DNA of 63,726 nucleotides, counting the filler. It is 3 parts of 3 records of this genome, joined end to end, with 100 filler letters (N's around TTAATTAATTAA, not from the genome) between each part and the next. Parts side by side here need not be neighbours in the genome. Positions count along the whole stretch, not along the records: positions 47,172 to 63,726 come from SRR20825019_849; 2 more parts are not named here. One strand, given 5' to 3'. This document shows positions 47,172 through 63,645 of this stretch, piece after piece (the stretch's first letter is position 1; every line of letters begins with the position of its first letter). Position numbers and translations under genes: made by a program. Below the pieces are notes generated by a model that did not search any database, was not told the DNA's origin, and worked only from the letters and a program-made list of their open reading frames with translations.

Positions 47172-48604
47172 ATGCCGATGCGCTGGCGCTGGCCGCCGGA
47201 GAAACTGTGCGGATAGCGGTTCAGGTGCCGGGCATCGAGCCCGACCAGCTTCATCAGCTCCGATACCATCTCGCGGCGATAGGCATCGTCGCCGATACCG
47301 TGGATCACCAGCGGCTCACTGACGATATCGAACACCGTCATGCGCGGATTGAGAGAGCTGAACGGGTCCTGGAAAACGAATTGCAGCTTCTGACGGAAAT
47401 CCGTGAGCCGGTCGCCATCAAGGCCCAGCACATCAATCTCGCCATCCTGGTCCGCATAGGTGACCGCCCCCTGATCCGGCGTCAGAGCGCGCATGATGGT
47501 CTTGCTGAGAGTGGTCTTGCCGCAGCCGGATTCCCCGACAAGGCCAAGACATTCACCCGGCCGCACTTCGAAGCTCACATCGTCCAGCGCATAGACCTTC
47601 GATTCCTCGCTGGAGAGCCAGGAGCCCTGACGGATGGTGAAGCATTTCGAAAGGCTATCGACCTTCAGGATCGGTTTCTTGCTGTCGACCGGAGCCTTCG
47701 CGGCCTCGGTCGGCGCCAGCAGATGTCCGGTTTCGCTCTTGATGTCACGGATTGGGACCAGTCTTTCGCCCGGCTCCATGTTGAAGCGGGGGACCGCCGC
47801 CATCAGGGCTTTCAGATAGGGATGCTGCGGATCATTGAACAACTGCTCGCGCGTACCGCTTTCCATCACCCGGCCGCGATACATGACCACAACATCGTCG
47901 GCCATGTTGGCGACGACACCGAGATCGTGGGTGATCATCAGCACCGCCATGCCGAGCTCGGCCTGCAGATCCTTCATCAGCTTCAGGATCTGGGCTTGAA
48001 TAGTGACGTCGAGCGCAGTGGTCGGCTCATCCGCGATCAGCAGGGACGGACGGCAGATCAGCGCCATCGAGATCATCGCCCGCTGACGCAATCCACCGGA
48101 CAGCTCGAACGGATAGGTGCGCAGCGCCCGGGCCGGGTCCGGAAAACCGACCATCCGGAGCATATCCTCGGTCAGTTCCTGCGCCTCGCGGCCGGAAACG
48201 TCCCGATGCAGCTCCAGTGCCTCGCGGATCTGGTTCCCCACCGTGTGCAGCGGCGAGAGCGAGGTCATCGGTTCCTGGAAAATCAGCGATATCTGGCCGC
48301 CACGAATCTGCCGCATCGCCTTGCTGTTGCGATTGAGCCGGGCGATGTCGATGATCGTACCTTTTTTACGGTCATCCGCGAACAGGATGGAGCCATTGCG
48401 GATCTGGGCAATCGGGGGAAGCAGACCCATGATAGCCTGGCTGACAACGCTCTTGCCGGAGCCGGATTCACCAACCAGAGCCACGGTTTTACCAGCACGG
48501 ACCTGGAAGGACACCCTGTTTACGGCAAGCAGCTCCCCGCCCGGTAAATCGAACGCAACCTGCAAGTCCCTGACCCGCAGCAGCGGTGTCAGTTGGTCGT
48601 TCAT
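47172..48604 (-). CDS. Opp/Dpp-type ABC importer ATP-binding protein with two fused NBDs, 3' truncated
   Basis: GESGSGKS and GESGCGKT Walker A motifs, YPFELSGGLRQR, DEPTTALDVTIQAQIL, YPHSFSGGQRQRI. Confidence 0.95.
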
Positions 48605-48633: not shown

Positions 48634-49134
48634 CTACTGATCCCTTGCGGCCAGCCCCGTGTTTATCCCTGCGGCCACCAGATTATCCGTTGTCGTCTGG
48701 GTTAGTCCAAGATCGTTTTGCCTGGCAGCGGAAGCGGCATGCTCAAGCACGGTCTCAAAACCGTCAAGCGTCGATTCCAGGCTGATTTTCACGCCATTCC
48801 GGTCCTTCAGGACAAGATGCATCCAGCCGGAGTTCTTCTCCTTCTGAGTCGAGTAATAGCGCAGATCCAGTACAGCAAGTTCCGGCCATTTGATGGTCTT
48901 GCTCAAGGGTCCATGCGCCTGAATGCCGACGTCATCGACCTCGTACCTGGTTTGCGCCCGGAGCCAGGTTTTGGCGATAAAGCCGGCGAAAATCAGTGCG
49001 ATCAGCAAAAAGACGATCTGGAAGGTTCCAAGCATCGGCGCAAAGGCGACCGGAAAGGCGGTAACCGCGAACCCAAGGCCGCCGCGCACATAGTCCCCCG
49101 TAACCGCGCCTTTCTTGTATCCGTGCAGGCTCAT
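48634..49134 (-). CDS. Small two-TM membrane protein with soluble C-terminal domain (possibly bacterial PH-like)
   Basis: Two TM helices followed by YEVDDVGI...TIKWPEL...LRYYST...GWMHLVL. 4-nt overlap with the upstream gene. Confidence 0.7.
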   Translation of the reverse strand: MSLHGYKKGAVTGDYVRGGLGFAVTAFPVAFAPMLGTFQIVFLLIALIFAGFIAKTWLRAQTRYEVDDVGIQAHGPLSKTIKWPELAVLDLRYYSTQKEKNSGWMHLVLKDRNGVKISLESTLDGFETVLEHAASAARQNDLGLTQTTTDNLVAAGINTGLAARDQ

Positions 49135-49907
49135 CCCAGATCCTCTACAGGTAAAAAACAGTCATGCGGCGCAATCAGCTCGACGGCCCGATGGGACTTC
49201 ACTTCCAGCATCAAAGCCTCAAGCGCACGCCAGTCCTCGCCCACCATTACCAGATGATGCGTCAAAAGTCCGCTCGGCTCCGCCGGGTCGGCCCGGCCCG
49301 TACGGCGCGCTTCAAGATGCGCCGCCAAAGCGGCCGCCACGGCTCCCGAGCCGACAAATTCACGCGTACCGCGCCAGTCAATGACATCGCTGTGGGTGTT
49401 CACACAGCGCAGGCCCGGCACGGCCGAGGATGCCTGCCGCGGGCCGAAGGTCGAAAGCCCCCTGAAACCGCACCCGGGAAGCGCCTCGACCAGATCCGGT
49501 GCGATGCGATTCCAGGGCGGCACAAAACAGGGAAGCAGAAGCTCCGGAAATGCGTCGCGCAAGGCGCTCAAGGCCGCGCGCGCATCCCCGCATTTATCAT
49601 CCAGCGCGCGGGAGGCCGGGAATTCGCACTTCTTTTCACCGTCCGCCGCATGGTTCCGGTGAGCAAATCCATGCACCAGAAGTTCCGTGCCGGCTCCCGC
49701 AAGACGCGCCGCCAGCCCGCCCATGTCGGCGCCTTCCGGCACAATTGCCAGCCCCGGAACCCATTCCGTCGCCTCCGCCATGGCAAGCAACGGCTCCAAT
49801 GCCGGGGTCGGGCGCTGCAGGTCGTCGTCCCGCCACCAGATCGTGGCGGTCAGTCCCTCCGCATCCCAGCGATCAAGCTCCCGCAGGAGAATGCCGGTCC
49901 CGGTCAC
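49131..49907 (-). CDS. Polysaccharide deacetylase-like (NodB/CE4 fold) protein
   Basis: WWRDDD, LVHGFAHRNH, FVPPWNRI, LLTHH. Confidence 0.8.
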   Translation of the reverse strand: MTGTGILLRELDRWDAEGLTATIWWRDDDLQRPTPALEPLLAMAEATEWVPGLAIVPEGADMGGLAARLAGAGTELLVHGFAHRNHAADGEKKCEFPASRALDDKCGDARAALSALRDAFPELLLPCFVPPWNRIAPDLVEALPGCGFRGLSTFGPRQASSAVPGLRCVNTHSDVIDWRGTREFVGSGAVAAALAAHLEARRTGRADPAEPSGLLTHHLVMVGEDWRALEALMLEVKSHRAVELIAPHDCFLPVEDLG

Positions 49908-51067
49908 GCCGGCTCCAGCAACTGGCTGAGAATGCGCGCCGTTCCGGCAGCGCCATCAAGATCGATGCCCGAAACACCCACCTCACGGCCCGCCACCGCC
50001 TGCTGCATCGCCTGTGCAAGCGCGTCATGGGTCAGGGCATCTTCCGGCACCACGGCAAGGCGTCCGCGCTTCGCCAGCAGATCCGCGCGGATCCGTTGCT
50101 CGGTCTCGACGCCGCCCTCATAGGGAATCACCACGGACGCCGTCCCTGCCGTCAGCACTTCGGCCAGAGTGTTGTAGCCAGCTTGTGAAATCGAAAGGAA
50201 CGCTCTCGAAATGATTGAGGCAAGATCGGGACGGCTGCGCTCGACGATCACGCCCGGCCCGGCCAACTTTTCAATCTCGCGCGCTGCCTCGTCCGGCATG
50301 TGCGGCCCGGTAACAAAGCGCCATGTCCGGTCGGCAAAGGGGAGAGCGGAGCGAAGCTCTGCCACCGCGCGCATGATATCCCCGCCAACGGCCCCGCCAC
50401 CGGCCGAGACCACAACCTCGCCCGCGCCGTCACCAGTTTCATTGCCCGCTATATCGATCGGGTTCAGCACATAGCCGGTATAGCGGACCGGAGGTGTCAG
50501 TTCGTCATACATCGGGAAGGTATCGGCGAGGCTGATGACCGCCTCATCGCCATGCACCAGCACCATGTCGTAGTACCGGTCGACGGTTTCGACGATCTCC
50601 CGGTTGCGGTCCGGGCGCGGTTTGGTGACCAGAATATCCCGCATCGAAGAGACAATTTTCGGTTGCCAGTCCACCGCCTTGGCCCGGTCGAGCAGCGGCA
50701 GCAATTCGAAGCGCATCTGCCGCCGTCCGAAAGGAAACAGCTCCGTGAAAACGATATCGGGGCGGATTTCCTCGAACAGGGCGAGCAATGTGTCGCACCG
50801 GGCAGCGCGCCATGCATCGTCGATTTCCCGGCCGTTCTCGTCCGCCAGAACCTTGAACAGGCTGTCCACGGCACGCACGGGCGGCAACTGATGCAGGATC
50901 GCACCGCCAATATCCAGATGCGGAACCGGCATGCCGCCGGAGACGAAATGCACCTCGAAACCATCAGCGACCGCGGCCTGCGCGACTGCCGCCGCCCGGC
51001 GCAGATGGCCAATGCCCAGGAGGTTCTGGACATAGAGAAAAAGCGTCTTGGGCCGGGTATCCGTCAT
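49904..51067 (-). CDS. GT-B glycosyltransferase, COG4671/GT28-C-like
   Basis: YVQNLLGIGHLRR, ELFPFGRR, VSAGGGAVG, SQAGYNT, EQRIRA. Confidence 0.88.
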   Translation of the reverse strand: MTDTRPKTLFLYVQNLLGIGHLRRAAAVAQAAVADGFEVHFVSGGMPVPHLDIGGAILHQLPPVRAVDSLFKVLADENGREIDDAWRAARCDTLLALFEEIRPDIVFTELFPFGRRQMRFELLPLLDRAKAVDWQPKIVSSMRDILVTKPRPDRNREIVETVDRYYDMVLVHGDEAVISLADTFPMYDELTPPVRYTGYVLNPIDIAGNETGDGAGEVVVSAGGGAVGGDIMRAVAELRSALPFADRTWRFVTGPHMPDEAAREIEKLAGPGVIVERSRPDLASIISRAFLSISQAGYNTLAEVLTAGTASVVIPYEGGVETEQRIRADLLAKRGRLAVVPEDALTHDALAQAMQQAVAGREVGVSGIDLDGAAGTARILSQLLEPA

Positions 51068-51657
51068 GACAGCAGGCTCACATTCATTGCATCCGGACGG
51101 ATCTCCCCGTCCGGGTCGAGACGGACCATATGCATGGCCGACCAGTCAAGCCGGACCGGCGGCTTTCCCATCATGTCCCAGTCCCAGGCGAGTGCCAGCG
51201 CGGCGCGGATCACCCCCTTGTGGGTGACGGCGAGGCAGCGTTCCGGCAGTGGCTGCCGTGCCTGAAGTTTTTCAAAAAACACCTGCAGCCGGCGCTGCAC
51301 ATCGCGTGGAGATTCCCCGCCCGGGGGCCGGAAATCCAGACCCCGGTCCTCGTTCTCTTTCATTTCGGATCCGAGTTGATCCCTGAGCTCGGCAAGCCGC
51401 CGGCCTTCCCAATCTCCCCAATGCATTTCCGTCAGAAGCGGCTCCTCTTCCAGGTAGGCACACCCCGCCAGCGAGGCTGTCTCCCGGGCACGCTGAAGCG
51501 GTGAGATCAGGGCCGGTGCTAGCCGGAAGGCTTCCGGAAGCCGGTAGCGGGCCACCTGTGCCCGGCCTTCTGCGGAAAGCGGGATATCGGTCCGGCCCTG
51601 CAAACGTTGCTCGGCATTCCACGCGGTCGGCCCATGCCGCAGAAATCCGATCAGCAT
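51064..51657 (-). CDS. Histidine phosphatase (phosphoglycerate mutase family)
   Basis: RHGPTAWN..RLQGRTDIPLS, SPLQRARET, EMHWGDWEG, PGGES, VTHKG. Confidence 0.93.
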   Translation of the reverse strand: MLIGFLRHGPTAWNAEQRLQGRTDIPLSAEGRAQVARYRLPEAFRLAPALISPLQRARETASLAGCAYLEEEPLLTEMHWGDWEGRRLAELRDQLGSEMKENEDRGLDFRPPGGESPRDVQRRLQVFFEKLQARQPLPERCLAVTHKGVIRAALALAWDWDMMGKPPVRLDWSAMHMVRLDPDGEIRPDAMNVSLLS

Positions 51658-52778
51658 GGCAGGGCCTCGAGCGCCGCATTCAGCCGGGCCGCAGCGCTTT
51701 CGAGACTATGAGCGCGATTGGCCTGCTCCCGGCCTGCGGCACCGAAGCGGCGCGCAAGATCCATATCGAGAAGCAGCCGATCAAGGTTGACGGCAAAACC
51801 GGCGCTGTCTCCTTCGGCGGAAAGCAGGCCCGTTACGCCATCGCTGACGATATCCGGCACCCCGCCGACATCGCCCGCCACGACCGGAAGTCCGTTGGCC
51901 TGGGCCTCCAACAATGCCATGCCGTAGGCTTCGTTGATCGCGGGCCAGACGAAGATATCCACCGCCTGATAGAGAGCCTGGAGCTGCGCAGCATCTACCG
52001 CCCCAAGCAGATGAACGCGGCCCCGATGCGGCGCGAAACAGGCCTCGACCTCCGGCCGGCCGTCACCATCACCGGCAATGACCAGCGCCCACGGCCGCTC
52101 CGGCGGGATCCGCGACAGGGCATCCGCCAGCACTCTGTAGGACTGGATTTTCACCCCCGGCCGCATCATGCCGACGGCAAGCAGCAACGGAACACCCGCT
52201 GCAATCCCGAGACGTTCCCTCAGCGCGGTCCCGGCACCCGGGTCTTCCGGATAGGGCAGGCCATCGAGGAACGGCTTGATCTCAAGATACCGGCCAGCCG
52301 GCCCAAGACACGGTGCCACACAGCCTTTGTCCCGGCTGTTGAAGCCGATGGCAAGCGCGGCCTGACCGAGCGCTTCCAAAACCCTCTGGTGTGAATCCGC
52401 CCACGGTCCCGACGCCCGTTTCGGGGCATTCGACGCCTCGGCGACCACATAGGGAATGCCAAGCCGGGCCGCGATCCCGGGCCCGATCAGGTCGGGAGCC
52501 TTGTAATAAAGGTGATAGGTGAACCAGAGGTCCGGCGGCACAATCTTTCCGGACTCGCAACATTTCACGAACCGGTCCGTATAACGCGCGCCAAGCCGGA
52601 CGAGCCGGGCCTGACGGGCCAGGTCGCCCTTGCCGTCCCTGCTGCGCAGCCGGGAGGCGAGGAACACCTCATGTCCACCGACACGGAGAGCTGCCATAAG
52701 CAAACGCGCCATGCGCCGGTCTCCGGAGGGTGTCGGTGCATCCGGGGATTTCAGCGGCGCGTGGAAAGCGATCCTCAC
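51651..52778 (-). CDS. GT4 family glycosyltransferase
   Basis: PSGDRRMARL, EAYGMALLEAQANGLPVVA (E-x7-E), DGVTG. Confidence 0.9.
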   Translation of the reverse strand: MRIAFHAPLKSPDAPTPSGDRRMARLLMAALRVGGHEVFLASRLRSRDGKGDLARQARLVRLGARYTDRFVKCCESGKIVPPDLWFTYHLYYKAPDLIGPGIAARLGIPYVVAEASNAPKRASGPWADSHQRVLEALGQAALAIGFNSRDKGCVAPCLGPAGRYLEIKPFLDGLPYPEDPGAGTALRERLGIAAGVPLLLAVGMMRPGVKIQSYRVLADALSRIPPERPWALVIAGDGDGRPEVEACFAPHRGRVHLLGAVDAAQLQALYQAVDIFVWPAINEAYGMALLEAQANGLPVVAGDVGGVPDIVSDGVTGLLSAEGDSAGFAVNLDRLLLDMDLARRFGAAGREQANRAHSLESAAARLNAALEALPC

Positions 52779-54037
52779 GCTGCTTCGTCCGTTCCCGTAG
52801 CAGCCCCCGTAGCAAGCCCAAGCAACGCCGCCAGCGTTCCAATCGCCGTCAGATGATCAAACCGGCTGCGGACCCTGGCCTCTCCGGCCGCCCCATACCG
52901 TGCCCTGAGAGCCGGGTTCCGGATCAGTTCCTCCACCGCCTTCGCCAGAGCCGCAATATCGTCCGGCGGAACAAGGGCGCCGGTGACACCGTCTTCCATC
53001 AGCTCCGGGATGGCGGACACATCCGTGGCAAGGCAGCAAAGTCCCTGGCTCTGCGCCTCCATCAACACATTCGGCAGCCCGTCCCGATCCCCGTCTTCGG
53101 CAATCCGGCTCGGCAGGATGAAGAGATCGGAGCCGCGATAGGCCTCAAGCACCTCACTCTGCGCCGCCGCCCCCCGCCAGGTGATACGCCCGGAAAGACC
53201 CAGACCCTCCGCCTGACCCTTCAGCGCCTTCAGCTCCTTGCCGCCACCGATATGCGTCCAGTGCCAGGATAATTCTTCCGGAAGCCGGGCGAGCGCATCC
53301 AGAAGCTGGTCGAACCCCTTTTTCGGGACCGCGCGGCCGACCGAAAGCAGACGCACAGGTTCACCGGCGCCGTCGCGCTGCACCGGACGTTCAACCCCGG
53401 GCGCGAAACTGGAGAGATCGAGGCCGTGATAGACCAGTCTGGTTTTGCCGGGCACGAGAGACTCCAGATGCTCAAAGCCATAGCGGGTGCAGGTCACGGC
53501 CCAGGCCGCATCGGCCAGCTTTTCGCGCTTCTCCCACTCCGGCGAGAGCCAGATATCCTTGGCATGCGCCGAGGCGGACCAGCTCCGTCCGCTCATCAGC
53601 GCCGCATAGCGGGCGACCGAGGACGGCGTGTGCAGGAAATGCGCATAGATATGGCGAAACTTCGGATCAAGCTCGGTTGCCAGCACCAGTGCCTGGCCGA
53701 AGCGGCGTCCCCGGTTTGGGGTAAAATCACGCTTCAGGTCCTTCAGCCAGAGACGGAAAGTCGCGCCATAGCCGGGCATCCGGCGGGCCTTCCACCAGGC
53801 CTTCAGAACCCGGAGAGGCTCCTGATAGAGGTATTCCGGCAGATAATTGACCCCGGCCGAGATCTTGCCATGCACCGGATGGCTGGCCGTATCCGTCGGA
53901 TGGCGCAGGGAAATGATGGTGTAATCGAGCCCGAGGCGCTGCAGCTCGAGAATTTCCTGCGCGATGAAGGTTTCCGAAAGGCGCGGATAGCCCTTCAGAA
54001 CGATGGCCGTCGGAACGCTCGTCTGTGATCTTGCCAT
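52775..54037 (-). CDS. GT4 family glycosyltransferase (WcaL-like)
   Basis: KGYPRLSETFIAQE, VGRAVPKKG, DRDGLPNVLMEA. Start MARSQ at 54037 preferred over the ORF-track start, which overlaps the upstream gene. Confidence 0.9.
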   Translation of the reverse strand: MARSQTSVPTAIVLKGYPRLSETFIAQEILELQRLGLDYTIISLRHPTDTASHPVHGKISAGVNYLPEYLYQEPLRVLKAWWKARRMPGYGATFRLWLKDLKRDFTPNRGRRFGQALVLATELDPKFRHIYAHFLHTPSSVARYAALMSGRSWSASAHAKDIWLSPEWEKREKLADAAWAVTCTRYGFEHLESLVPGKTRLVYHGLDLSSFAPGVERPVQRDGAGEPVRLLSVGRAVPKKGFDQLLDALARLPEELSWHWTHIGGGKELKALKGQAEGLGLSGRITWRGAAAQSEVLEAYRGSDLFILPSRIAEDGDRDGLPNVLMEAQSQGLCCLATDVSAIPELMEDGVTGALVPPDDIAALAKAVEELIRNPALRARYGAAGEARVRSRFDHLTAIGTLAALLGLATGAATGTDEAA

Positions 54038-54083
54038 AACCTGCTGAACCAATGTGACGCCTGTCCGCGAGCCGGACGCTGGC

Positions 54084-55331
54084 TCAGGCTTCCCGTCGGA
54101 GCACGGCGACCTTGGCGGTGGGGCCCTGCCCATACAACCAGTTCTGTGCCAGCCGATTGACTTCTTCAAGCCCATCCAGCAAACCGGATTCCATCGTCTC
54201 CGACGGAGTCGGCTGACTGGGCAGGCGCCGCAGCGCCTCCGACATGACGTCCGGGTCACGCTCGCCGTCATCCACGAGCATGGCGGTGATCCCCAGCTCT
54301 TCGGCGCGGGCGGCGCGAATATACTGCTCCATCCGCGGCTCCGTCCGGGGCACGATCAGCGCCCGCTTGTCGAAGGACAGAATCTCGCAGAAAGTGTTGT
54401 AACCACCCATGGCGACAATACCCGCCGCGCGCGCCATCAGGCTCTCGATGCGTGAGTCGAAAGTGATGACATCGACCCGGTCGAGCTCGGCGGCCCGCTC
54501 CATGAAGTCGTTCTGCAACTCCGCCGGCATGAACGGTCCAAGCACGAGAAGAGCGCGGTACGGAAGATCCGCATCCGCTTCGTAAGCCTTGAGAACCCAG
54601 TCCATCAGCCCGTCGCCATCGCCACCGCCACCGGCCGTGACAAGAATGAACGGATCTTCAAGATCCGTCGTCATGATCGGGTGCACGTGACTTGGCACCT
54701 TGCGTTTCAGATAGCCCGTATAGGACGTCTTGGCCTGCACGGAGTCCGGCATTGGCATGCCGGAATACGGATCGCAGACAGACTGCAGGCCATAGACCCA
54801 GATGTCGTCATAGACATCGCGCAGGGCTTCGACCGCGTTCTTGCGCTCCCACTCCGGCAGCAGCTTTTCCGGCTCGTCCATGACGTCACGCAGGCCAAGC
54901 ACCAGCGGTGTTCCGCGCTCCTTCAGCATCTCCAGGGTCGGCCGGACCTCGCCGCGCAGCCCCCAGGGCTCCTTGTCCACGATGAAGAGATCAGGGTCGA
55001 ACGCATCCGCCGTATGCTTGATGATCGAGGAGCGCAGATTCAGCGTATCCTCGATATCCAGATGCAGATTGAGCGAGGTGTAATCGCCGTTGCGCAGCTT
55101 GATCACGCCCGGAATGCGGACGAAATCGACGCGCGTGCGAAAATCGAAACTGCCTATGATCGGCGACCCGGACAGAATCAGCACGGACAGGTCGGACTGC
55201 CGTTCCACCAAAGAGTGCGCAATTGCCCGGCAACGCCGGAGGTGACCCAGCCCCATTGTATCGTGGCTGTACATCAGCACACGTTTTGGGCCGCGTTTGT
55301 TGCTAGCAGCGTACGTCAAACGCTCATCCAC
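54084..55331 (-). CDS. GT-B glycosyltransferase, COG4671-like
   Basis: YSHDTMGLGHLRR, LGLRDVMD, VTAGGGGDG, MGGYNTFCE, EQYIRA. Confidence 0.88.
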   Translation of the reverse strand: MDERLTYAASNKRGPKRVLMYSHDTMGLGHLRRCRAIAHSLVERQSDLSVLILSGSPIIGSFDFRTRVDFVRIPGVIKLRNGDYTSLNLHLDIEDTLNLRSSIIKHTADAFDPDLFIVDKEPWGLRGEVRPTLEMLKERGTPLVLGLRDVMDEPEKLLPEWERKNAVEALRDVYDDIWVYGLQSVCDPYSGMPMPDSVQAKTSYTGYLKRKVPSHVHPIMTTDLEDPFILVTAGGGGDGDGLMDWVLKAYEADADLPYRALLVLGPFMPAELQNDFMERAAELDRVDVITFDSRIESLMARAAGIVAMGGYNTFCEILSFDKRALIVPRTEPRMEQYIRAARAEELGITAMLVDDGERDPDVMSEALRRLPSQPTPSETMESGLLDGLEEVNRLAQNWLYGQGPTAKVAVLRREA

Positions 55332-55542
55332 TCACACATCGGCCTTGAAAGCTGAAGGCCCCGCTGAACCGCGGGTTTGATCCCCACGCATATCCCCATT
55401 TTCTTATCACTATGCCACAGTGTTACTTGTGGCAAAACCAGTTTGGCCTAACCCGCATTTACGTTATGACACTGTTCGGTTACTGTTTTGCGCACAAACG
55501 ATTTTTGCCGACATCGCCAACCTGCATAGGCTGACGGACCGC

Positions 55543-58179
55543 ATGGAACCTACGATTTTCCGGTTCATCCTCCGGCACAGCAAGAAAGAACAGATCTTCC
55601 TTCTTGTACTGACCGGACTCTCTTTCCCTTTTCTCTATTATTCTCTCGACCTTCCAAAAACCATCATCAACCAGGCCATCGGCGGAAAAGACTTTCCCCG
55701 CGACCTGTTCGGGTATCAGCTCGACCAAATCCCGTACCTGCTGCTGCTGAGCGTGATCTTCCTCGCCCTCGTCTGCGTCAATGGGGGTTTCAAATACTAT
55801 ATCAACGTCTTTCGCGGCCAGCTTGGCGAGCGCATGCTGCGGCGTCTGCGCTACGACCTTTATGCCCGGGTCCTGCGCTTCCCTCTGCCGCATTTCAAAA
55901 AAGTCAGTCAGGGCGAAGTGATTCCGATGATCACCGCCGAGGTCGAGCCGCTTGGCGGCTTCATCGGCGATGCGGTCTCCCTGCCGGCTTTTCAGGGCGG
56001 CACGCTGCTGACCATTCTGGTCTTCATGTTCGTGCAGGACCCGATCCTCGGCACCGCCGCAATCGCGCTCTATCCGGTCCAGGGCTATATCATTCCGAAG
56101 CTGCAGCGCCGGGTGAACGAGCTTGGCAAGGAGCGGGTAAAGGCAGTCCGCAAACTGTCGGACCGGATTGGCGAGAGCATTTCCGGCGTTCAGGAGATCC
56201 ACGCCAACAATACGGCGCGCTTCGCCCTCGCCAATTTCACTGCCCGTCTGGGCGAGATCTACACGATCCGCTACGAGATCTATCGGCGCAAATTCTTCAT
56301 CAAGTTCCTGAACAACTTCATCGCCCAGCTGACCCCGTTCTTCTTCTATTCGATCGGCGGCGTGCTGGTGATCAAGGGGGATCTCACCTTCGGGGCTCTG
56401 GTTGCCATTCTGGCCGCCTACAAGGATCTGTCCGCGCCCTGGAAGGAATTGCTGAGCTACTACCAGCGCAAGGAAGATTCCCGGATCAAGTACGATCAGG
56501 TGATCGAGCAGTTCGACACGGCGGGCAGCCTGACCGAAGCCCAGCAGCTGGATGAGCCGGAAGAGCCGGTTTCGCTGGCTGGACCGGTGGCACTGCGCAA
56601 TCTCGGCCTGATGGATGACGACGGCGAAGTCCTGCTGGAAAACGTCACCTTCGAAATCAAGCAGGGCGAAAAAGTCGCGATTGCAGGTCCCGGCGGCGGC
56701 GGCAAGGATCTCCTGGCAATGGTGGCGGCGCGCCTGCTGTTACCGACATCCGGCAGCATCACCATGAACGGGATCGACATCTCGGGCCTGCCGGAGGCCG
56801 TCACGGGACGGCGGATCGGCTATGTCGGGCCAAGCGCTTTCGTATTCTCCAGCACAATCCGCGAGAATATGCTGCTGGGCGCCCGTCATGTTCCGCACGG
56901 CGATCCGGACCCCGAATGCTATCCGGATTCCCCCGGCCAGCGCGAAGCCGCGGAAGCATCCGGAAACTCGCTTGACCCGATTTCGGCCAACTGGGTCGAC
57001 TACCAGGCGGTTGGCGTCGAGGAAGACCGCCTGAATGCGCGCCTCGCCGACCTGCTGCGCGTGGTCGGCCTTGAAGACGAGGTCTATGCTTTCGGGTTGC
57101 GCGGCTCCCTTGATCTGGCCAGTCGCGACGAAACCGGACAGCGCATCCTCGGAGCCCGGGCAAAGCTCCGTTCCCGTCTCGGGGAACTGGATCTCGACAC
57201 TCTGGTCGAGCCGTTCGATGCGGAGAAGTTCAACACCAATGCAAGCGTGGCCGAGAACCTGCTGTTCGGCACGCCGGTCGGTGAGCAGTTCAAGCTCGAC
57301 CGTCTCGCCAGCGATCCCTATGTCCGCTCGGTTCTCGACCAGGTTGGCCTGACCGAGGATTTTGTCCGGATCGGCCGCGACGTGGCGGCAACGATGGTCG
57401 AGCTGTTCAAGGATTTGCCACCCGATCATGAATTCTTCGCGCAATATGCCTTCATCTCGGCCGACGAGCTGCCGGATTATCAGACACTGGTGCAGCGGGC
57501 CGACAGGGTTGGCCTGGATGAAATGGGGCCGGAGGACCGGAACCGTTTCCTCGATCTGCCGTTCAAGCTGATCCCGGCCCGGCACCGCCTCGGCATGATC
57601 GAAGAGGATCTGAAAGACCGGATCCTCGAAGCCCGCAAGGCTTTCCGCGAAGGGTTGCCGGAAGACCAGCAGTCCGCGCTGGAGTTCTTCTCTGTCGATC
57701 AGTTCAATCTTGCCGCCTCGGTGCAGGACAACATCCTGTTCGGCAAGATCGCCTACGGACAGGCCGACGCCGGTAACCGGGTCGGCGCAGTGCTCGCGGA
57801 AGTCATCGAGTCCGAAGGGCTGCGCGACACGGTTATCGAGATCGGCCTGGGAGCGGAGGCGGGTATCGCCGGCTCCCGCCTGACCACACCGCAGCGGCAA
57901 AAGGTCGCGATTGCCCGCATGCTACTCCGCCGGCCGGATATCCTGATCCTGAACGAAGCGGTTTCGACCCTCGATTCCGGGGTTCAGGCGCCAACCGTGG
58001 CCCGCATCCTGAAGGAGGCCGGCGACCGGACGGTTATTCTCATTGCCCAGCGCGCCCGCTTGGCGCAACCGTTCGATCGTGTTCTGGTAATGCGCGGCGG
58101 CCGGGTGATCGAAGACGGCACATTTGATACTCTCGACAAGGAAGGGACCGTGTTCCGGGGATTACTCGATGAGGAATAA
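55543..58179 (+). CDS. ABC exporter-like fused TMD-NBD protein with degenerate ATPase motifs and an internal duplication
   Basis: Type IV exporter TMD (LGERMLRRLR..LY..VLRFPLPHF), Walker A region GPGGGGKD, signature region LTTPQRQK, Walker B region ILILNEA. Start MEPTIF at 55543 preferred. Confidence 0.9.
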   Translation: MEPTIFRFILRHSKKEQIFLLVLTGLSFPFLYYSLDLPKTIINQAIGGKDFPRDLFGYQLDQIPYLLLLSVIFLALVCVNGGFKYYINVFRGQLGERMLRRLRYDLYARVLRFPLPHFKKVSQGEVIPMITAEVEPLGGFIGDAVSLPAFQGGTLLTILVFMFVQDPILGTAAIALYPVQGYIIPKLQRRVNELGKERVKAVRKLSDRIGESISGVQEIHANNTARFALANFTARLGEIYTIRYEIYRRKFFIKFLNNFIAQLTPFFFYSIGGVLVIKGDLTFGALVAILAAYKDLSAPWKELLSYYQRKEDSRIKYDQVIEQFDTAGSLTEAQQLDEPEEPVSLAGPVALRNLGLMDDDGEVLLENVTFEIKQGEKVAIAGPGGGGKDLLAMVAARLLLPTSGSITMNGIDISGLPEAVTGRRIGYVGPSAFVFSSTIRENMLLGARHVPHGDPDPECYPDSPGQREAAEASGNSLDPISANWVDYQAVGVEEDRLNARLADLLRVVGLEDEVYAFGLRGSLDLASRDETGQRILGARAKLRSRLGELDLDTLVEPFDAEKFNTNASVAENLLFGTPVGEQFKLDRLASDPYVRSVLDQVGLTEDFVRIGRDVAATMVELFKDLPPDHEFFAQYAFISADELPDYQTLVQRADRVGLDEMGPEDRNRFLDLPFKLIPARHRLGMIEEDLKDRILEARKAFREGLPEDQQSALEFFSVDQFNLAASVQDNILFGKIAYGQADAGNRVGAVLAEVIESEGLRDTVIEIGLGAEAGIAGSRLTTPQRQKVAIARMLLRRPDILILNEAVSTLDSGVQAPTVARILKEAGDRTVILIAQRARLAQPFDRVLVMRGGRVIEDGTFDTLDKEGTVFRGLLDEE

Positions 58180-58209
58180 TCCGGAACCGGTAAGACAAAG
58201 GGTCCACCC

Positions 58210-58665
58210 ATGAGTCTGAATGAAGAAGTCGAGCTCCTGAAGAACATCCCGCTCTTCGCCAAGATCGAGCCATCGAAGCTGAAACTTCTCGCCTTCACCT
58301 CCGAGCGCTTGGTCTATGCGGACGGGCAGGTGCTGTTCAGTCAGGGGGATTCCGGCGATGCCGCCTATATCATCATCGGCGGAACCGCCTCGGTGCTGAT
58401 CAAAACGGAGAACGGCATGGTCGAGGTAGCCCAGCTCAGCAAGGGCGACGTGGTCGGCGAGATCGCCATTCTGTGCGATGTGCCGCGCACGGCAACCGTA
58501 CAGGCCAAGGAAGCCCTGACCACCCTGAAGATCAACAAGGAAGCGTTCTTCCGTCTCGTCACCGATTTCCCGCTGATCGCGGTCGAGATCATGCGTGAGC
58601 TGGCGGCCCGCCTGGAGCAGACCAATGTCCAGCTCCGCGCCGCGCTTTCCGATAACGGAAACTAG
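58210..58665 (+). CDS. Stand-alone cyclic-nucleotide-binding domain protein
   Basis: LKNIPLF, LFSQGDSGDAAYII, GEIAILCDVPRTATV. No HTH follows. Confidence 0.93.
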   Translation: MSLNEEVELLKNIPLFAKIEPSKLKLLAFTSERLVYADGQVLFSQGDSGDAAYIIIGGTASVLIKTENGMVEVAQLSKGDVVGEIAILCDVPRTATVQAKEALTTLKINKEAFFRLVTDFPLIAVEIMRELAARLEQTNVQLRAALSDNGN

Positions 58666-58674
58666 CAGCAGCCC

Positions 58675-59163
58675 GTGAGCCGTCTCGACAGTGCCATCCG
58701 CCGCTTGCAGGCGCAGAAGCTGAGCCTGGAATGGGCCGTCTCGGCCATCGAAAATCATTCCGGAAATGCAATAGAGCTCGGTCTCGGCAATGGCCGGACC
58801 TTCGACCATCTGCGCTCCCTGATGCCGGAGCGCCCCTTCTATGTGTTCGACCGGCAAATCGCAGCGCATCCGGACTGCATCCCGGCGGATGACCGGATTT
58901 TCCTCGGCGATTTCCGCGAGACGCTGGTCACAGCACGGCAGGCGCTCGGCCAGACCGTGCTGCTGGCCCATCTCGATATCGGCACTGGCGAAAAGGCGGC
59001 GAGCATCGCATTGGCGGCGCAAATCGCGCCTCTGGTGGATGCTTTGCTGGCCGACGGCGCCGTGGTTGTCAGCGACCAGCCGGTATCGTTGCCGCGCTGG
59101 ACAGCCGCCGATCTGCCAGAAGAAATCAAGCCCGGCCGTATCCACCTCTACCGAATCGGTTAG
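58675..59163 (+). CDS. Small class I SAM-dependent methyltransferase
   Basis: Motif I AIELGLGNGRTFDHLR, YVFDR, LAHLDIG. Confidence 0.82.
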   Translation: MSRLDSAIRRLQAQKLSLEWAVSAIENHSGNAIELGLGNGRTFDHLRSLMPERPFYVFDRQIAAHPDCIPADDRIFLGDFRETLVTARQALGQTVLLAHLDIGTGEKAASIALAAQIAPLVDALLADGAVVVSDQPVSLPRWTAADLPEEIKPGRIHLYRIG

Positions 59164-59238
59164 CCCCGGCGGGTTGAACCGGGTCGCAACAAGACGCATG
59201 TCACAGCCAGAAAAGCGCCATTTACGCGAGGAAGAGCG

Positions 59239-60324
59239 TTGGATTCACTGACCCAGATCGTGCTCGGCGCGGCCGTCTCCGTTGCCGTCTCCGGACGCCG
59301 CATCGGCCCCCGCAAGGCTGCTCTGCTGGGCGCGGGCCTCGGTACCCTGCCCGATCTCGACGTACTGGTGCGCCATGGCGATGCGGTAAGCGACTTCATC
59401 CTGCATCGAAGCTGGAGCCATTCCCTGCTGGTGCATGCCGCGCTCGCGCCGCTGATCGGCGAAGGCGTGATGCGGGTCTTCAGCGGCCTTCGGGAGCACC
59501 GCGTCACGGCCTATCTGACCGTGTTCCTCTGCCTCGCCACCCACGCGCTGCTTGATGGCATGACGGTCTATGGCACCCAGCTGCTATGGCCTCTGACGAA
59601 TACGCCCTACGGCATCGGGTCCATCTTCATCATCGATCCGCTCTATACCCTGCCGCTGGCCGTCGCCACCGTCTGGGCGCTGCTGCGGCGCGACTGGTCG
59701 GCGAAGGTCGGGCGGGTGACGGCGGTAGCCCTCGCGCTTTCCACTCTCTATCTCGGCTGGTCCCTGGTGGCGCAGCAGGTTGCCAACGGGAAGGCCCGGG
59801 ATGTTCTCGCAAATGCCGGGATCAGGGCCGAGAAGGTATTGGCCACGCCGATGCCCTTCAACACCGTGTTCTGGCGCACCATCGCGATCGATGGCAGCCA
59901 TTACTACAATATCTATCAACCGCTTCTTGCCGGCCCGGACGCGGCCCGCATCCATGCCCACCCGCGCCTCGCCGACGGTGCTCCCTGTCTGGATACGATC
60001 CCCAGCGCTGCCGCCGTCGCGGCTTTCTCGAAGGGCTATTACCGTGTCTTCAGGGACGAGAGCGGACTCCGGATCGCCGATCTCAGAATGGGCGTGACGC
60101 CGAGTTTCGTCTTCGATTTCCGGATCGCATCACCGGATGGCGATAGCTGGAAAGCGATCCTGCCGGAGCGGGTCATAAACGCCCGGTCAGCGCCCGGCGA
60201 CATAGGCTGGCTGCTTGATGGCATGTTCGGCGGAAACACTGTGCGCCCGTCGGAAGCGGCCGCTCTTTTCGATCCGGCGGCGCCGTTAATTGCCGTTCTG
60301 CCAGAGACGCCTGCCTGCGGGTGA
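59239..60324 (+). CDS. Membrane-bound metal-dependent hydrolase (YdjM-like)
   Basis: MDSLTQIVLGA, LPDLD, HRSWSHS, THALLD.MTVYGT, IFIIDPLYT. Confidence 0.88.
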   Translation: MDSLTQIVLGAAVSVAVSGRRIGPRKAALLGAGLGTLPDLDVLVRHGDAVSDFILHRSWSHSLLVHAALAPLIGEGVMRVFSGLREHRVTAYLTVFLCLATHALLDGMTVYGTQLLWPLTNTPYGIGSIFIIDPLYTLPLAVATVWALLRRDWSAKVGRVTAVALALSTLYLGWSLVAQQVANGKARDVLANAGIRAEKVLATPMPFNTVFWRTIAIDGSHYYNIYQPLLAGPDAARIHAHPRLADGAPCLDTIPSAAAVAAFSKGYYRVFRDESGLRIADLRMGVTPSFVFDFRIASPDGDSWKAILPERVINARSAPGDIGWLLDGMFGGNTVRPSEAAALFDPAAPLIAVLPETPACG

Positions 60325-60339
60325 GTTCACTTTCTAAAA

Positions 60340-60424
60340 CCGTCATTCCCTCGAAAGAGGGAACCTAGCGATCATCGAACCATGTCCGTCTTCCCCTGGG
60401 TCCCCGCGTTCGCGAGGATGACGG
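60340..60424. repeat. Alphaproteobacterial REP-like palindromic element
   Basis: CCGTCATTCCCTCGAAAGAGGGAACC...GGGTCCCCGCGTTCGCGAGGATGACGG: terminal inverted repeat with two internal hairpins, between convergent genes. Confidence 0.8.
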
Positions 60425-60451
60425 CTCTTTCTTTTTATTATTTTTAGCCGC

Positions 60452-61243
60452 TCAATCCAGATCGACGATCACCGGGGCATGGTCGGACGGCTTCTCGCCG
60501 CCGCGCATGGCTTTCACCACGGCAGCAGATTTCAGCCGGCTTTTCAGCGGCTCCGTCACCCAGACATGGTCGAGGCGGCGGCCCTTGTCGGCCAGCTCCC
60601 AGTTCTTCGACCGGTAGCTCCACCAGGAATAGAGCTTTTCCGTTTCGGGAACGAAATGGCGAACCGCATCGACCCAGCCGAGTCCGGCCTGCAGCTTGCC
60701 CAGCTCCTCGACCTCGATCGGGGTGTGGCTGACCACTTTCAGCAGCTGCTTGTGCGACCAGACATCATGCTCCAGCGGCGCAATGTTGAGGTCGCCGACC
60801 AGCACCATCGGATCGCTGCCCTTACGTTCGGCCCCGAACCAGCTCTGCATCTCGGCCAGGAAATCGAGCTTGTGGGCGAACTTGTCGTTCACCGCCGGAT
60901 CCGGCTCGTCGCCGCCCGCCGGTACATAGAAATTATGCACTTCGGGTCCGCCGTCGAGACGAACCGCGAGATGCCGGCAATCCGTCTTGCCGCACCAGTC
61001 ACGCTGGCCCTCATCCGTGAAGGGCACGCGGGAGACCACGGCAACGCCGTTATAGCTCTTCATGCCCCGGATCGCCTGATGGACATATCCCGCATCCTTC
61101 AGTGCCTCTGCCGGGAAGGTTTTGTCCTCGGTCTTGGTTTCTTGCAGGCAGAGCACGTCGGGTGCCTGTTCTTGCAGGAAACGCAGCACCGTCGGCAGGC
61201 GCAGGCGCACGGAATTGATGTTCCAGGTGGCAATCCGCATCAC
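60452..61243 (-). CDS. xth: Exodeoxyribonuclease III
   Basis: ATWNINSVRLR, LQETK, YNGVA, GDLNIAP, WWSYR, RLDH, SDHAPV. Confidence 0.95.
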   Translation of the reverse strand: MMRIATWNINSVRLRLPTVLRFLQEQAPDVLCLQETKTEDKTFPAEALKDAGYVHQAIRGMKSYNGVAVVSRVPFTDEGQRDWCGKTDCRHLAVRLDGGPEVHNFYVPAGGDEPDPAVNDKFAHKLDFLAEMQSWFGAERKGSDPMVLVGDLNIAPLEHDVWSHKQLLKVVSHTPIEVEELGKLQAGLGWVDAVRHFVPETEKLYSWWSYRSKNWELADKGRRLDHVWVTEPLKSRLKSAAVVKAMRGGEKPSDHAPVIVDLD

Positions 61244-61271
61244 TCTGTCTTTCGGTTCGGGGAGTTAAGGA

Positions 61272-62060
61272 TTATTCGGCTGCGGCGGCGAGGCCGAGAC
61301 GGGCATTGAGATGGGCCCGGCAGGCATCGCCGAAAGCCTCGAAGATTTTCTTGTTCAGCCCCTCGATCGGAACCGGCCATTCCGGGTGCCACTGCACGCC
61401 GAGCACGAATGCCTTGGCGCCGGGCACGCTGATCGCCTCGACGATACCGTCCGGCGCCACCGCCTCCACAACCACGCCGTCGCCCGGCTGATCAATGCCC
61501 TGGGCATGCAGCGAGTTGACCAGCGCGGTATCGGTCCCGGCGATGCGGGCAAGCTTGCCGCCTTCGGTTATGCGAATTTCATGGGCAGGTCGGTATTTGC
61601 GCGTGTACGCGACATCCCGGCGCATGCGGTGATCGAACCGGTCTTCCATGTCGAAGATGCGCTGATGCAGGGTGCCGCCGAGGGCGACATTCATTTCCTG
61701 GATCCCCCGGCAGATCCCGAGCACCGGCACACCGGCTTCGATCGCCTTGCGGATCAGCGGCAGGGTAACGCCGTCGCGGCGCGGATCGTGCTCGGTACCC
61801 TCGACACTGTCGGGGCCGTTGAAGTTATGCGGCTCGACATTCGACGGGCTGCCGGTCAGCAGCAATCCGTCGAGATGGGCCACCAGACTGTCCAGATCCA
61901 GCGCGCCCGCTTCCAGCGCCGGAATGATCATCGGCAGGCCGCCAACCGGGGTCGGCACGCAGCTGACGTATTTTTCGGAGACCTTCTGCGTCGAATGGTC
62001 CTCGCTCTGCAGATGACAGGCAGTGACACCGATCAGGGGCAGGTTCGGGACGGACAGCAT
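61272..62060 (-). CDS. Gamma-glutamyl-gamma-aminobutyrate hydrolase family (peptidase C26, PuuD-like)
   Basis: DGLLLTGSPSNV, LGICRGIQEMNVALGG, VNSLH.QG, GVQWHPE. Confidence 0.92.
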   Translation of the reverse strand: MLSVPNLPLIGVTACHLQSEDHSTQKVSEKYVSCVPTPVGGLPMIIPALEAGALDLDSLVAHLDGLLLTGSPSNVEPHNFNGPDSVEGTEHDPRRDGVTLPLIRKAIEAGVPVLGICRGIQEMNVALGGTLHQRIFDMEDRFDHRMRRDVAYTRKYRPAHEIRITEGGKLARIAGTDTALVNSLHAQGIDQPGDGVVVEAVAPDGIVEAISVPGAKAFVLGVQWHPEWPVPIEGLNKKIFEAFGDACRAHLNARLGLAAAAE

Positions 62061-62156
62061 CTAAGGCTCCTCGGCTCATGACTGGTAACGCCCGGATCTC
62101 CGGGCTGTGAGGGCGCGCAACTGGCGGCGCCGGAATTCGCCTGCCATATTCGCTCC

Positions 62157-62927: not shown

Positions 62928-62936
62928 GATCACCGC

Positions 62937-63560: not shown

Positions 63561-63645
63561 AAAACCTGAAATGGCAGGCGTTCGCCCCGCTTGCAAGCGG
63601 CAATTCCAAGGCAGACCTGCTCCCACGACCATCATCACTCTCAAA

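Follow-up and report, generated by a model that had tools for sequence, protein, structure and literature searches.

Homodimeric type-IV ABC exporters such as MsbA, Sav1866, PglK, NdvA/ChvA and HepA carry one transmembrane domain (TMD; PF00664) followed by one nucleotide-binding domain (NBD; PF00005) in each chain, and exporters of glycans and glycolipids often adjoin glycosyltransferase genes. Alternating access powered by ATP is what defines ABC exporters as a class. Heterodimeric exporters in which one ATP site is degenerate are common, the degenerate site serving regulation and not turnover, and SbmA/BacA-type transporters use an ABC-related membrane domain of another TMD lineage, with no NBD at all, that works without ATP hydrolysis. 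Cyclic-nucleotide-binding (CNB) domains share a phosphate-binding cassette with the consensus G-E...R-[ST]-A, and alphaproteobacterial cAMP/cGMP signalling is known for its many cyclases and few known targets. The exporters with one degenerate site are reviewed in PMC7756269, and HetC of Nostoc PCC 7120 (TIGR03797 type), an exporter coupled to a CNB-fold ligand sensor, needs that sensor for function (PMC10986499).

Here we describe an ABC gene in a window of 63,726 nucleotides (the whole stretch of DNA that was analysed, made of three contigs with N runs between them, its positions 47,172 to 63,726 coming from record SRR20825019_849); the features of the locus are collected in Table 1. The frame is open throughout its 878 codons, as the earlier note had read it, and its ATG at 55543 agrees with the N-termini of homologues (MEPTIF...). 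The product is a type-IV ABC exporter homologue. Pfam recognises a six-helix ABC_membrane domain (PF00664; residues 46-291, 84.3 bits against a cut-off of 28) and ABC_tran (PF00005; 62.1 bits, cut-off 25), the latter match being split by an insert of ~265 aa at about residues 450 and 713. In an AF2 model of residues 335-878 (pLDDT 90.5) ~249 residues superpose on canonical NBDs with Z ~29 and an rmsd of ~2 A, and the modelled NBD core still folds as an NBD. The protein reached neither of the curated equivalogs MsbA (TIGR02203; 181.7 against a cut-off of 602) and HepA (NF045513; 185 against 725), nor TIGR03797, the family of CNB-containing bacteriocin-type exporters (136.3 against 709.4), and all of its NCBIfam scores lie far under their cut-offs.

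Table 1. Coordinates, within the window, of the degenerate ABC exporter gene, its parts and the surrounding genes.
Feature	Coordinates	Strand	Remarks
Degenerate ABC exporter gene	55543..58179	+	TMD residues 1-330, then NBD ~355-878 including insert
Transmembrane domain, residues 1-330	55543..56532	+	best-conserved part of the ABC protein
Walker A GPGGGGKD, residues 382-389, Asp replaces Ser/Thr	56686..56709	+	aligned to GssGcGKS
Repeat 1, residues 423-550	56809..57192	+	degenerate Q-loop YVGP, TIRENMLLG, helical segment to ...GARAKL
Repeat 2, residues 551-712	57193..57678	+	extra copy SVAENLLFG ... EARKAF, with ELFKDLPPDHEFF and PARHRLG motifs
Predicted CNB docking surface, part 1, residues 620-635	57400..57447	+	interface of complex prediction
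Predicted CNB docking surface, part 2, residues 681-684 HRLG	57583..57594	+	interface of complex prediction
Repeat 3, residues 713-800	57679..57942	+	runs on through LTTPQRQK, the degenerate signature, and IARMLL
Walker B ILILNE, residues 800-805; Asn replaces Asp, Glu retained	57940..57957	+	opposite ilLLDE
H-loop position, residue 836 = Gln	58048..58050	+	IAQR opposite IAHR
Stand-alone CNB protein, 151 aa	58210..58665	+	30 bp past ABC stop; cNMP_binding (PF00027) 72.3 bits, cut-off 27.5
SAM methyltransferase (Methyltransf_17), same operon	58675..59163	+	Pfam 172.8 bits; at least 35% identity in 43/80 loci
YdjM-family membrane protein	59239..60324	+	adjacent in Nisaea loci only; tblastn matches only L004-L006
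Palindrome TGCCACA-N8-TGTGGCA, divergent promoter region	55413..55434	.	both arms identical in L005 and L006, but the entire region is 94% identical
GT-B glycosyltransferase (Glyco_tran_28_C)	54084..55331	-	divergent from ABC gene; 57/80 loci
GT4 glycosyltransferase, 498 aa	52775..54271	-	66/80 loci
GT4 glycosyltransferase, 375 aa	51651..52778	-	59/80 loci
Histidine phosphatase (His_Phos_1)	51064..51657	-	56/80 loci
Second Glyco_tran_28_C glycosyltransferase	49904..51067	-	55/80 loci
orf258, polysaccharide-deacetylase-like (lead only)	49131..49907	-	44/80 loci
orf166, small protein, hydrophobic N-terminal stretch	48634..49134	-	always beside importer ATPase
Canonical double-NBD ATPase, PepT (Opp/Dpp)-type ABC importer	47172..48604	-	truncated at contig end

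We placed the ATP-site motifs by aligning the protein with ABCB4 and ABCB1 (phmmer). All five motifs named in the earlier note (Walker A, Q-loop, signature, Walker B, H-loop) fall where it had put them, and all are degenerate: besides the substitutions given in Table 1, the Q-loop reads YVGPS opposite vVsQE, with Pro at the Gln position, and the signature LTTPQ opposite LSGGQ. The A-loop Tyr of ABCB4 stands opposite a gap, leaving no A-loop aromatic. The canonical GxxGxGK[ST], Q-loop Gln, LSGGQ, hhhhDE, H-loop His and A-loop aromatic are thus all missing from this protein, which does keep the lysine of Walker A, the catalytic Glu that follows Walker B, and the Asp of the D-loop. The A-loop gap, these retained residues and the insert that splits the NBD had escaped the earlier note.

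The protein belongs to a large and widespread, mainly alphaproteobacterial family with an ABCB-like half-transporter fold, of which we found no description in the literature; its hallmarks (a triplicated segment, degenerate motifs, and a CNB gene downstream or fused) are all present here. We aligned the window protein with 140 representatives of at least 780 aa, among 150 listed (n=141). Conservation fails at every catalytic position, and of 10 canonical residues each of the 141 sequences has 6 at most. At the Walker A Lys position 43 sequences have K, 51 R and 21 A; at the Ser/Thr position 34 have S or T and 54 have D or E; the Asp of Walker B is retained in 42 and replaced by N in 63. Nine sequences have the Q-loop Gln, 30 the catalytic Glu and 8 the H-loop His, and each of the signature glycine positions is G in only 8. 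Two such chains paired together would lack any consensus ATP site, just as had been proposed from the window sequence. The same degeneracy recurs in homologues from 98% down to 34% identity, and dN/dS is 0.077-0.090 overall and 0.03-0.14 in each region, including the degenerate NBD and the insert. Family-wide substitutions with dN/dS well under 1, the check proposed in the earlier note, are thereby borne out, and the result that would have refuted the note, canonical motifs kept by homologues, did not appear. Strain-specific decay, a pseudogene in the making, has only the degenerate motifs themselves in its favour; it is refuted by the motif tables and by a dN/dS of 0.08, and sits no better with an open frame and synteny in 80 loci, so that its probability is close to nil. 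The degeneracy, judged from these alignments, is selected and not a product of chance. Because the substitutions are family-wide and under strong purifying selection, we take the ABC protein to be a functional, non-canonical one.

Five of the five family-bearing genomes checked hold one full-length copy each; the nearest genome, G001, which is probably related to another contig of the window, lacks the family, its best match being 22% identical. Orthologues occur in S. meliloti, on the pSymB chromid, and in R. leguminosarum, on plasmids, which places genetics at hand; that of R. leguminosarum WSM1325 is RLEG_RS29510. The S. meliloti homologue, at 841.7-844.4 kb of pSymB (NC_020560.1 841727-844399), is named only as 'ABC transporter ATP-binding protein'. 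It could not be linked to SMb20813 (msbA1) of the same species, for which the papers naming that tag report neither a length nor coordinates. We considered msbA2 as the S. meliloti orthologue and rejected it, its operon lying at about 938 kb of pSymB (PMC3687685).

Conservation is concentrated in the membrane. Across the 141 sequences 54 positions are at least 90% conserved, 45 of them within the TMD, which contains many invariant polar residues and has a dN/dS of 0.03-0.07. NBD-less relatives in copper clusters are 44-48% identical over the TMD; relatives of this TMD are therefore encoded without any NBD. In the window's own clade, among 17 homologues (60-91% identity), the Walker A position is Asp in 12, Glu in 5 and never Ser/Thr, Asn804 is invariant, and the P-loop glycines, Walker A Lys (14/17), the D/E that follows it and the D-loop Asp are likewise highly conserved. 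At the H-loop position 13 of them carry Gln, 3 His and 1 Arg; His is the residue of the three nearest Nisaea homologues, and of L005 and L006.

This clade-level conservation raises an alternative, namely that the degenerate site, with no meaningful hydrolysis, still accommodates a phosphate-bearing ligand such as ATP or GTP, that closure around it drives the switch, much as happens at the degenerate site of heterodimeric exporters, and that the CNB protein only modulates this. The conserved P-loop could indeed still bind such a ligand: GxxGGGK[DE], the Asn-Glu of Walker B and the Asp of the D-loop show strong conservation in the clade, and the NBD core is intact in the AF2 model. Walker A D/E also tends to accompany Walker B N (31/54, against 13/34 for S/T, the sequences being related and not independent), a pairing that could reflect a compensated metal site with a swapped metal ligand. 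However, the Walker A Lys is present in fewer than a third of the 141 sequences, the positions that contact phosphate or metal vary freely, the A-loop aromatic is missing and the signature glycines are nearly always lost. We consider ligand-driven closure unlikely.

The insert itself proves to be two extra copies of the segment that runs from the Q-loop to the signature, that is, of the helical subdomain, such that three tandem repeats can be delineated. By hhalign, repeat 1 matches repeat 3 with 96.2% probability (E 2.6e-9) and repeat 2 with 94.0% (E 1.4e-7), and repeat 2 matches repeat 3 with 98.5% (E 1.6e-15), whereas six controls all gave at most 1.1%. When the insert was modelled alone and compared VIA-wide, all 50 among the matches listed were ABC NBDs or ABC transporters, covering ~70 residues of the helical-subdomain region at Z 3.6-6.4. 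A Foldseek search with the insert alone returned nothing at E <=0.001 (best E 1.0), and taken on its own the structural backing for extra helical subdomains is weak.

The partner of the ABC protein is the CNB protein. In 68 of 80 loci its gene follows the ABC gene in the same orientation, and in 6 more the two are fused (74/80 together); it is missing in 3 of the 77 loci with enough downstream sequence, and 3 further loci end too soon. The nine long representatives tested all end in a cNMP_binding domain, two of them with a GGDEF-like region too (one above the Pfam cut-off). The GEIAILCDVPRTATV cassette of the CNB protein is conserved, with its G-E...P-R-T-A pattern kept, and across 50 CNB partners G83, R93 and A95 never vary, while E84 and T94 are at least 90% conserved. 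Class III cyclase matches number 7-19 per genome in all five family-bearing genomes checked. CNB domains can bind ligands other than cyclic nucleotides: that of HetC binds ppGpp in vitro (PMC10986499).

A complex prediction for the ABC and CNB proteins, made without the family alignments, scored 0.69, against 0.02 for the best of three controls; this mark is reached by 51 of 78 solved complexes and by 2 of 108 mismatched pairs. Separate runs agree in at least 97% of contacts, with a partner pLDDT of at least 83. Positions at least 90% conserved are enriched at the ABC-side interface (10/20 against 92/524 elsewhere; one-sided Fisher p 0.0012), where H681 and L683 are invariant in 50 sequences; the CNB-side interface is not enriched (7/22 against 32/129, p 0.32). 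In a subclade without the CNB gene the docking motifs are replaced, ARHRLG by ARDPLD and AYGQA by VRGES. This loss in the sensor-less subclade represents a single evolutionary event. The prediction, which is no proof of binding, supports docking of the CNB sensor on the second repeat, and the link to the cNMP protein, which the earlier note had proposed to model, is borne out by gene pairing, fusion and complex score alike.

The ABC protein could instead have ceased to transport anything and be a membrane-anchored scaffold or sensor, its exporter fold detecting a membrane or periplasmic cue and passing it to the CNB domain and, in some relatives, to GGDEF; the C-terminal CNB of every long form tested, the two GGDEF-like regions and the loss of all ATPase motifs fit this. 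Against it stand a TMD that is the most conserved part of the protein and has many invariant polar residues, as expected of a specific substrate path, and tight synteny with biosynthetic glycosyltransferases and an importer, though both are compatible with sensing. We rate a pure scaffold or sensor as quite improbable. Glycosyltransferase synteny and the very conserved TMD point, at the level of sequence, to real transport of a specific substrate. The earlier label of pseudo-transporter or sensor gave too little weight to these two features.

The synteny in question involves a conserved cluster of four glycosyltransferases, a histidine phosphatase, a deacetylase-like protein and a PepT-type importer. 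The glycosyltransferase and phosphatase genes recur in 55-66 of 80 loci and also occur in R. leguminosarum, and the importer ATPase, with two ABC_tran stretches and oligo_HPY (Pfam), is matched in 47 of 80; SBP_bac_5 and two permeases come after it where loci extend that far. PDB sequence searches returned generic GT4 relatives only for both GT4 enzymes and nothing at E <=0.01 for the first Glyco_tran_28_C protein. For orf258 there was no Pfam match and a single weak PDB match (E 0.014), and in the ESM Atlas its closest clusters bear the name polysaccharide deacetylase (score 0.98). The N-terminal stretch of orf166, judged by eye, could form two membrane helices. We found no Pfam or NCBIfam name for orf166, orf258 or the gene cluster. 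The linkage of glycosyltransferase genes with an importer points towards a glycoconjugate yet to be characterised.

The neighbourhood also bears on the possibility, offered in the earlier note, that the ABC protein forms a heterodimer, as its inactive half, with a competent partner whose gene lies at another locus. The absence of a consensus site in a homodimer and the frequency of exporters with one degenerate site would make this natural. However, an adjacent exporter-type paralogue occurs in 0 of 80 loci, a weak NBD-like match (E about 1e-6) in 9 loci lies >1.5 kb away, mostly about 7 kb, and in five genomes, with their one full-length copy each, the next full-length exporters are <=26% identical. 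The sole canonical ATPase of the cluster is the PepT importer subunit, which has its own permeases and binding protein. The search for a partner half-transporter in these 80 loci and five genomes therefore yielded no paralogous partner, and a heterodimer is very improbable.

Because the CNB gene is nearly always adjacent or fused and sugar transferases are its neighbours, the ABC protein probably moves a sugar compound under second-messenger control, not by burning ATP. In its full form, we lean modestly towards a homodimeric exporter or flippase of the cluster's glycoconjugate that would be independent of ATP hydrolysis and gated through the CNB protein by a cyclic nucleotide. The pseudo-NBD keeps its fold but has lost the residues for productive Mg-ATP binding and hydrolysis, and is enlarged by two extra tandem copies of the helical subdomain, the second of which would serve as the CNB docking platform. 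Working as a homodimer, the protein would export or flip the glycoconjugate that the neighbouring genes for glycosyltransferases, phosphatase and deacetylase-like protein presumably produce, and ligand on the CNB partner, in place of ATP hydrolysis, would drive or gate the switch from pseudo-NBD to membrane domain. The canonical, ATP-driven PepT-type importer may retrieve this product or supply a precursor. A more detailed version, speculative and on the whole doubtful, has a second-messenger-gated, ATP-independent conduit in which a cyclic nucleotide on the docked sensor opens or closes a homodimeric pseudo-NBD clamp, so releasing an amino-sugar glycoside made in the cytoplasm, which the importer would then retrieve; this product is suggested by the GT4, phosphatase and deacetylase-like genes, which are reminiscent of the opening steps of mycothiol or bacillithiol synthesis. 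If true, release and recapture would form a regulated cycle for a solute or signal.

Should the favoured homodimer model hold, it would add a membrane-transport effector to bacterial cAMP/cGMP signalling. The family would offer a natural system for asking what an exporter scaffold can achieve in the absence of hydrolysis and how ligands other than ATP might close the NBDs, and it suits such questions because its helical subdomain is triplicated into a predicted docking platform for a cyclic-nucleotide sensor.

Compared with known systems, the ABC protein shares with the MsbA-type homodimeric exporters its one TMD and one NBD per chain, both folds being recognised, and its glycosyltransferase neighbours. 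It differs from them in its degenerate motifs, the ~265-aa insert and a nearly obligate CNB partner. TM287/288, TmrAB, BmrCD, MsRv1273c/72c, CFTR, SUR and TAP1 resemble it in their non-canonical Walker B, H-loop and signature, and NBDs of the heterodimeric exporters, CFTR, SUR and TAP1 are among the tied best structural matches to the AF2 model. Yet these proteins always keep one consensus site, contributed by a partner chain or a second half, whereas both sites of the presumed homodimer would be degenerate, and the ABC protein has no TMD0/L0 or R domain; the likeness to SUR and CFTR drawn in the earlier note is an analogy only. HetC likewise couples an exporter to a CNB-fold sensor, but it has an N-terminal CNB, a C39 peptidase domain, an essential ATPase Glu and ppGpp as ligand in vitro (PMC10986499), whereas in the present family the CNB domain is C-terminal or separate, is predicted to dock on the NBD insert, and accompanies an apparently dead ATPase. 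The existence of NBD-less relatives of its own TMD recalls SbmA/BacA, and unlike in those transporters the NBD here has been kept, enlarged and held under selection.

The ABC gene very probably encodes a functional, ATPase-dead protein of ABC-exporter fold that is coupled to a cyclic-nucleotide-binding (CNB) partner and belongs to a conserved family. As the earlier note had held, its reading frame is open, running for 878 aa from an ATG that agrees with the N-termini of homologues. Pfam recognised ABC_membrane at 84.3 bits and, in a split match, ABC_tran at 62.1 bits. NCBIfam exporter models also matched in two parts, about residues 56-450 and 713-877, with all scores far under their cut-offs. 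Alignment to ABCB4 and ABCB1 confirmed every motif placement first read from the sequence alone (GPGGGGKD, YVGP, LTTPQ, ILILNE and IAQR), and the A-loop Tyr position is a gap. The protein does keep the Lys of Walker A, the D-loop Asp and the Glu that follows Walker B.

Features of the ABC locus and of related loci
Feature	Position	Strand	Remarks
Contig bearing the ABC gene	47172-63726		third of three
Canonical double-NBD Opp/Dpp-type ATPase	47172-48604	-	left contig edge; only 5' part of gene on contig
orf258	49131-49907	-	no Pfam match
Block divergent from the ABC gene			in order: Glyco_tran_28_C glycosyltransferase, two GT4, histidine phosphatase, second Glyco_tran_28_C, orf258, orf166
Perfect palindrome TGCCACA-N8-TGTGGCA	55413-55434		in 211-bp divergent promoter region between glycosyltransferase and ABC operons
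ABC gene	55543-58179	+	
cNMP_binding protein (CNB partner), 151 aa	58210-58665	+	30 bp downstream of ABC gene
NBD-less relative, 413 aa	L087 7540-8781	-	Nisaea genome; between copB and PCuAC gene
NBD-less relative, 489 aa	L088 4797-6266	+	Phaeobacter plasmid; 45% identical over first ~320-340 residues

A word-index search gave at least 120 homologues of 60-98% identity, all save one partial protein covering 97-100% of the query. When 17 homologues (60-91% identity) were aligned, the Walker A Ser/Thr position was Ser or Thr in none, Asp in 12 and Glu in five; the Q-loop was G-P, Asn804 was invariant, and the H-loop residue was Gln in 13, His in three and Arg in one. An exhaustive search of 50%-identity representatives returned at least 150 proteins, all at E 4e-147 or better, and 140 of the 150 listed, each of at least 780 aa, were aligned with the window protein. 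Across these 141 sequences no catalytic position is conserved and none has more than six of ten canonical residues, so that the strain-specific decay which the earlier note had offered as its own refutation was not seen; of the 54 positions with at least 90% conservation, 45 fall in the TMD. Against two Nisaea loci the overall dN/dS is 0.077-0.090, and no region lies outside 0.03-0.14; these values are far below 1, the check that the earlier note had proposed. The lack of canonical motifs in homologues and the low dN/dS mean that the degeneracy is family-wide, not decay, and that the gene is functional. The strongest rival reading is that the degenerate site still binds nucleotide, because the local clade retains GxxGGGK[DE] and N-E.

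The NBD of this ATPase-dead protein is also enlarged. Residues 423-550, 551-712 and 713-800 each contain an [ED]N[ILM]L[FL]G motif and terminate in an xARxxL helix, and profile-profile comparisons among their sub-alignments gave probabilities of 94.0% (E 1.4e-7), 96.2% (E 2.6e-9) and 98.5% (E 1.6e-15), against at most 1.1% for six control pairs. Judged by these comparisons, the insert is a triplication of the segment. The AF2 model of residues 335-878 has a pLDDT of 90.5, and roughly 249 of its residues can be superposed on those of canonical NBDs (Z ~29, rmsd ~2 Å), with the ComA NBD, for instance, superposed over 239 of 239 residues; about 295 residues are surplus. Modelled by itself (pLDDT 83.9), the insert gave no Foldseek match at E ≤0.001. 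In a Foldseek-independent search each of the 50 matches listed was an ABC NBD or an ABC transporter, and the alignments spanned ~70 residues in the region of the helical subdomain; since Z was only 3.6-6.4, this structural match supports rather than proves the triplication.

In 68 of 80 related loci the CNB gene lies downstream of the ABC gene in the same orientation. In 65 of these it follows directly, within 400 bp; the other three are L065, where it overlaps the ABC stop, L072, where the ABC gene is truncated 5', and L054, where one gene lies between the two. Six loci have it fused to the ABC protein, three with enough room are without it, and three end too early to tell. All nine long representatives tested (1032-1206 aa) have a C-terminal cNMP_binding domain and two of them additionally a GGDEF-like region beyond it, at 34 bits in P0147, above the Pfam cut-off, and at 20.7 bits in P0142, below it. 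Judged by length alone, the fused forms at L042, L077 and L079 perhaps have this extension too. Such extensions hint at a link to c-di-GMP. The partner keeps the consensus PKA-like phosphate-binding cassette, and class III cyclase matches number 7-19 per genome in all five family-bearing genomes checked.

Structure prediction with the cNMP protein, which the earlier note had proposed, was run on NBD residues 335-878. Its score was 0.69, whereas the highest of three controls had 0.02; 51 of 78 solved complexes attained this mark, as did 2 of 108 mismatched pairs. Runs reached at least 97% contact agreement, with a partner pLDDT no lower than 83; the model supports binding to the NBD, and does not show it. 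The predicted interface comprises residues 1-6, 22-42 and 105-120 of the partner and residues 620-635, 681-684 and 738-742 of the ABC protein, the latter corresponding to the family motifs ELFxDLPxDHEF, ARHRLG and AYGQA in repeats 2 and 3. Conserved residues are enriched on the ABC side (10/20 vs 92/524, p 0.0012), with no enrichment on the partner side (7/22 vs 32/129, p 0.32). In a CNB-less subclade (L064 and L074, with L046 and L066 placed by sequence) the motifs are ARDPLD and VRGES, and L021 keeps ARHRLD and has lost AYGQA; this motif loss fits the predicted interface, but is a single evolutionary event. Loci L064, L021 and L074 are also without the glycosyltransferase block, and there is a Bac_transf sugar transferase upstream in L064 and an MBOAT acyltransferase downstream in L021.

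The suggestion that the protein is the inactive half of a heterodimer with a partner encoded elsewhere found no support: no adjacent exporter paralogue occurs in the 80 loci, and five family-bearing genomes have one full-length copy each, the next full-length exporters being at most 26% identical. A weak NBD-like match (E about 1e-6) appears in nine loci, more than 1.5 kb from the ABC gene and mostly at about 7 kb. Nisaea nitritireducens has a 413-aa paralogue 48% identical to ABC residues 3-320; neither this gene nor the 489-aa Phaeobacter gene has an NBD, and relatives of the TMD are therefore encoded without one. Their neighbours are multicopper oxidase, CopB, PCuAC and cupredoxin genes, that is, copper-resistance clusters, the 489-aa gene sitting after copper oxidase and cupredoxin genes. 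Many roseobacter plasmids yield a similar partial TMD match, the 489-aa gene being the one inspected.

Genes of the divergent block are present in 26-66 of the 80 loci (at least 35% identity). For orf258, protein-language-model features give polysaccharide deacetylase as the name of the closest ESM Atlas clusters (score 0.98), which is no more than a lead. Mycothiol synthesis proceeds by glycosylation, dephosphorylation and deacetylation, an order that the GT4 enzymes, histidine phosphatase and orf258 may recall. The Opp/Dpp-type ATPase gene is found in 47 of 80 loci; of the 47 loci with a match to orf166, 43 have the two genes side by side and the other four stop at the locus edge, and the two stay together in rearranged clusters. 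An SBP_bac_5 gene comes next in 13 of 13 loci reaching far enough, then two permeases in four of four, and L069 holds a complete PepT (Opp/Dpp)-type importer at 11693-17711 (double-NBD ATPase, SBP_bac_5 protein, two permeases). This importer is part of the degenerate exporter's conserved cluster. R. leguminosarum WSM1325 carries, all in one direction, the ATPase, binding protein, two permeases, three glycosyltransferases, degenerate ABC gene and CNB gene. Plasmid or chromid records bearing the family number 345, among them 144 from Rhizobium and 80 from Sinorhizobium, and the S. meliloti pSymB copy is degenerate too. The palindrome arms are identical in two further Nisaea loci, which says little because the region as a whole is 94% identical. 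Downstream, at 60452-63644, are ordinary housekeeping genes, whose products are peptidase C26, LolA, a fatty acid hydroxylase and a protein resembling exonuclease III; several related loci likewise have exonuclease-, C26- and LolA-like genes downstream.

The nearest relatives of the ABC gene are in Nisaea. N runs at 22046-22145 and 47072-47171 divide the window into contigs of about 40%, 52% and 62% G+C. The genome G001, the closest to the window among those compared and sharing 38% of sampled window words, has no member of the ABC family (best match 22% identity) and is therefore probably kin of another piece; with the differing G+C, this suggests that the three pieces may derive from different organisms of one bin.

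As a full mechanism, which we favour by a modest degree, the protein would act as a homodimer moving the glycoconjugate made by the cluster, gated by cyclic nucleotide binding to the docked CNB sensor, and transport would proceed without ATP hydrolysis. We found no published description of a degenerate ABC and CNB family in the literature, supplementary files lying outside the search. The predicted docking site on repeat 2 and its loss in the CNB-less subclade appear to be new, and new too are the linked PepT importer, the deacetylase-like gene and the NBD-less relatives in copper clusters. MsbA-type homodimeric exporters have the same build, but the protein fails the catalytic-motif test and the curated cut-offs. 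Its mode of action may have something in common with that of the degenerate sites in TM287/288-type heterodimers, or with CFTR and SUR, although it is without any consensus site. HetC is an ABC exporter under control of a CNB domain whose ligand found in vitro was ppGpp; unlike the protein described here, its ATPase is active (PMC10986499).
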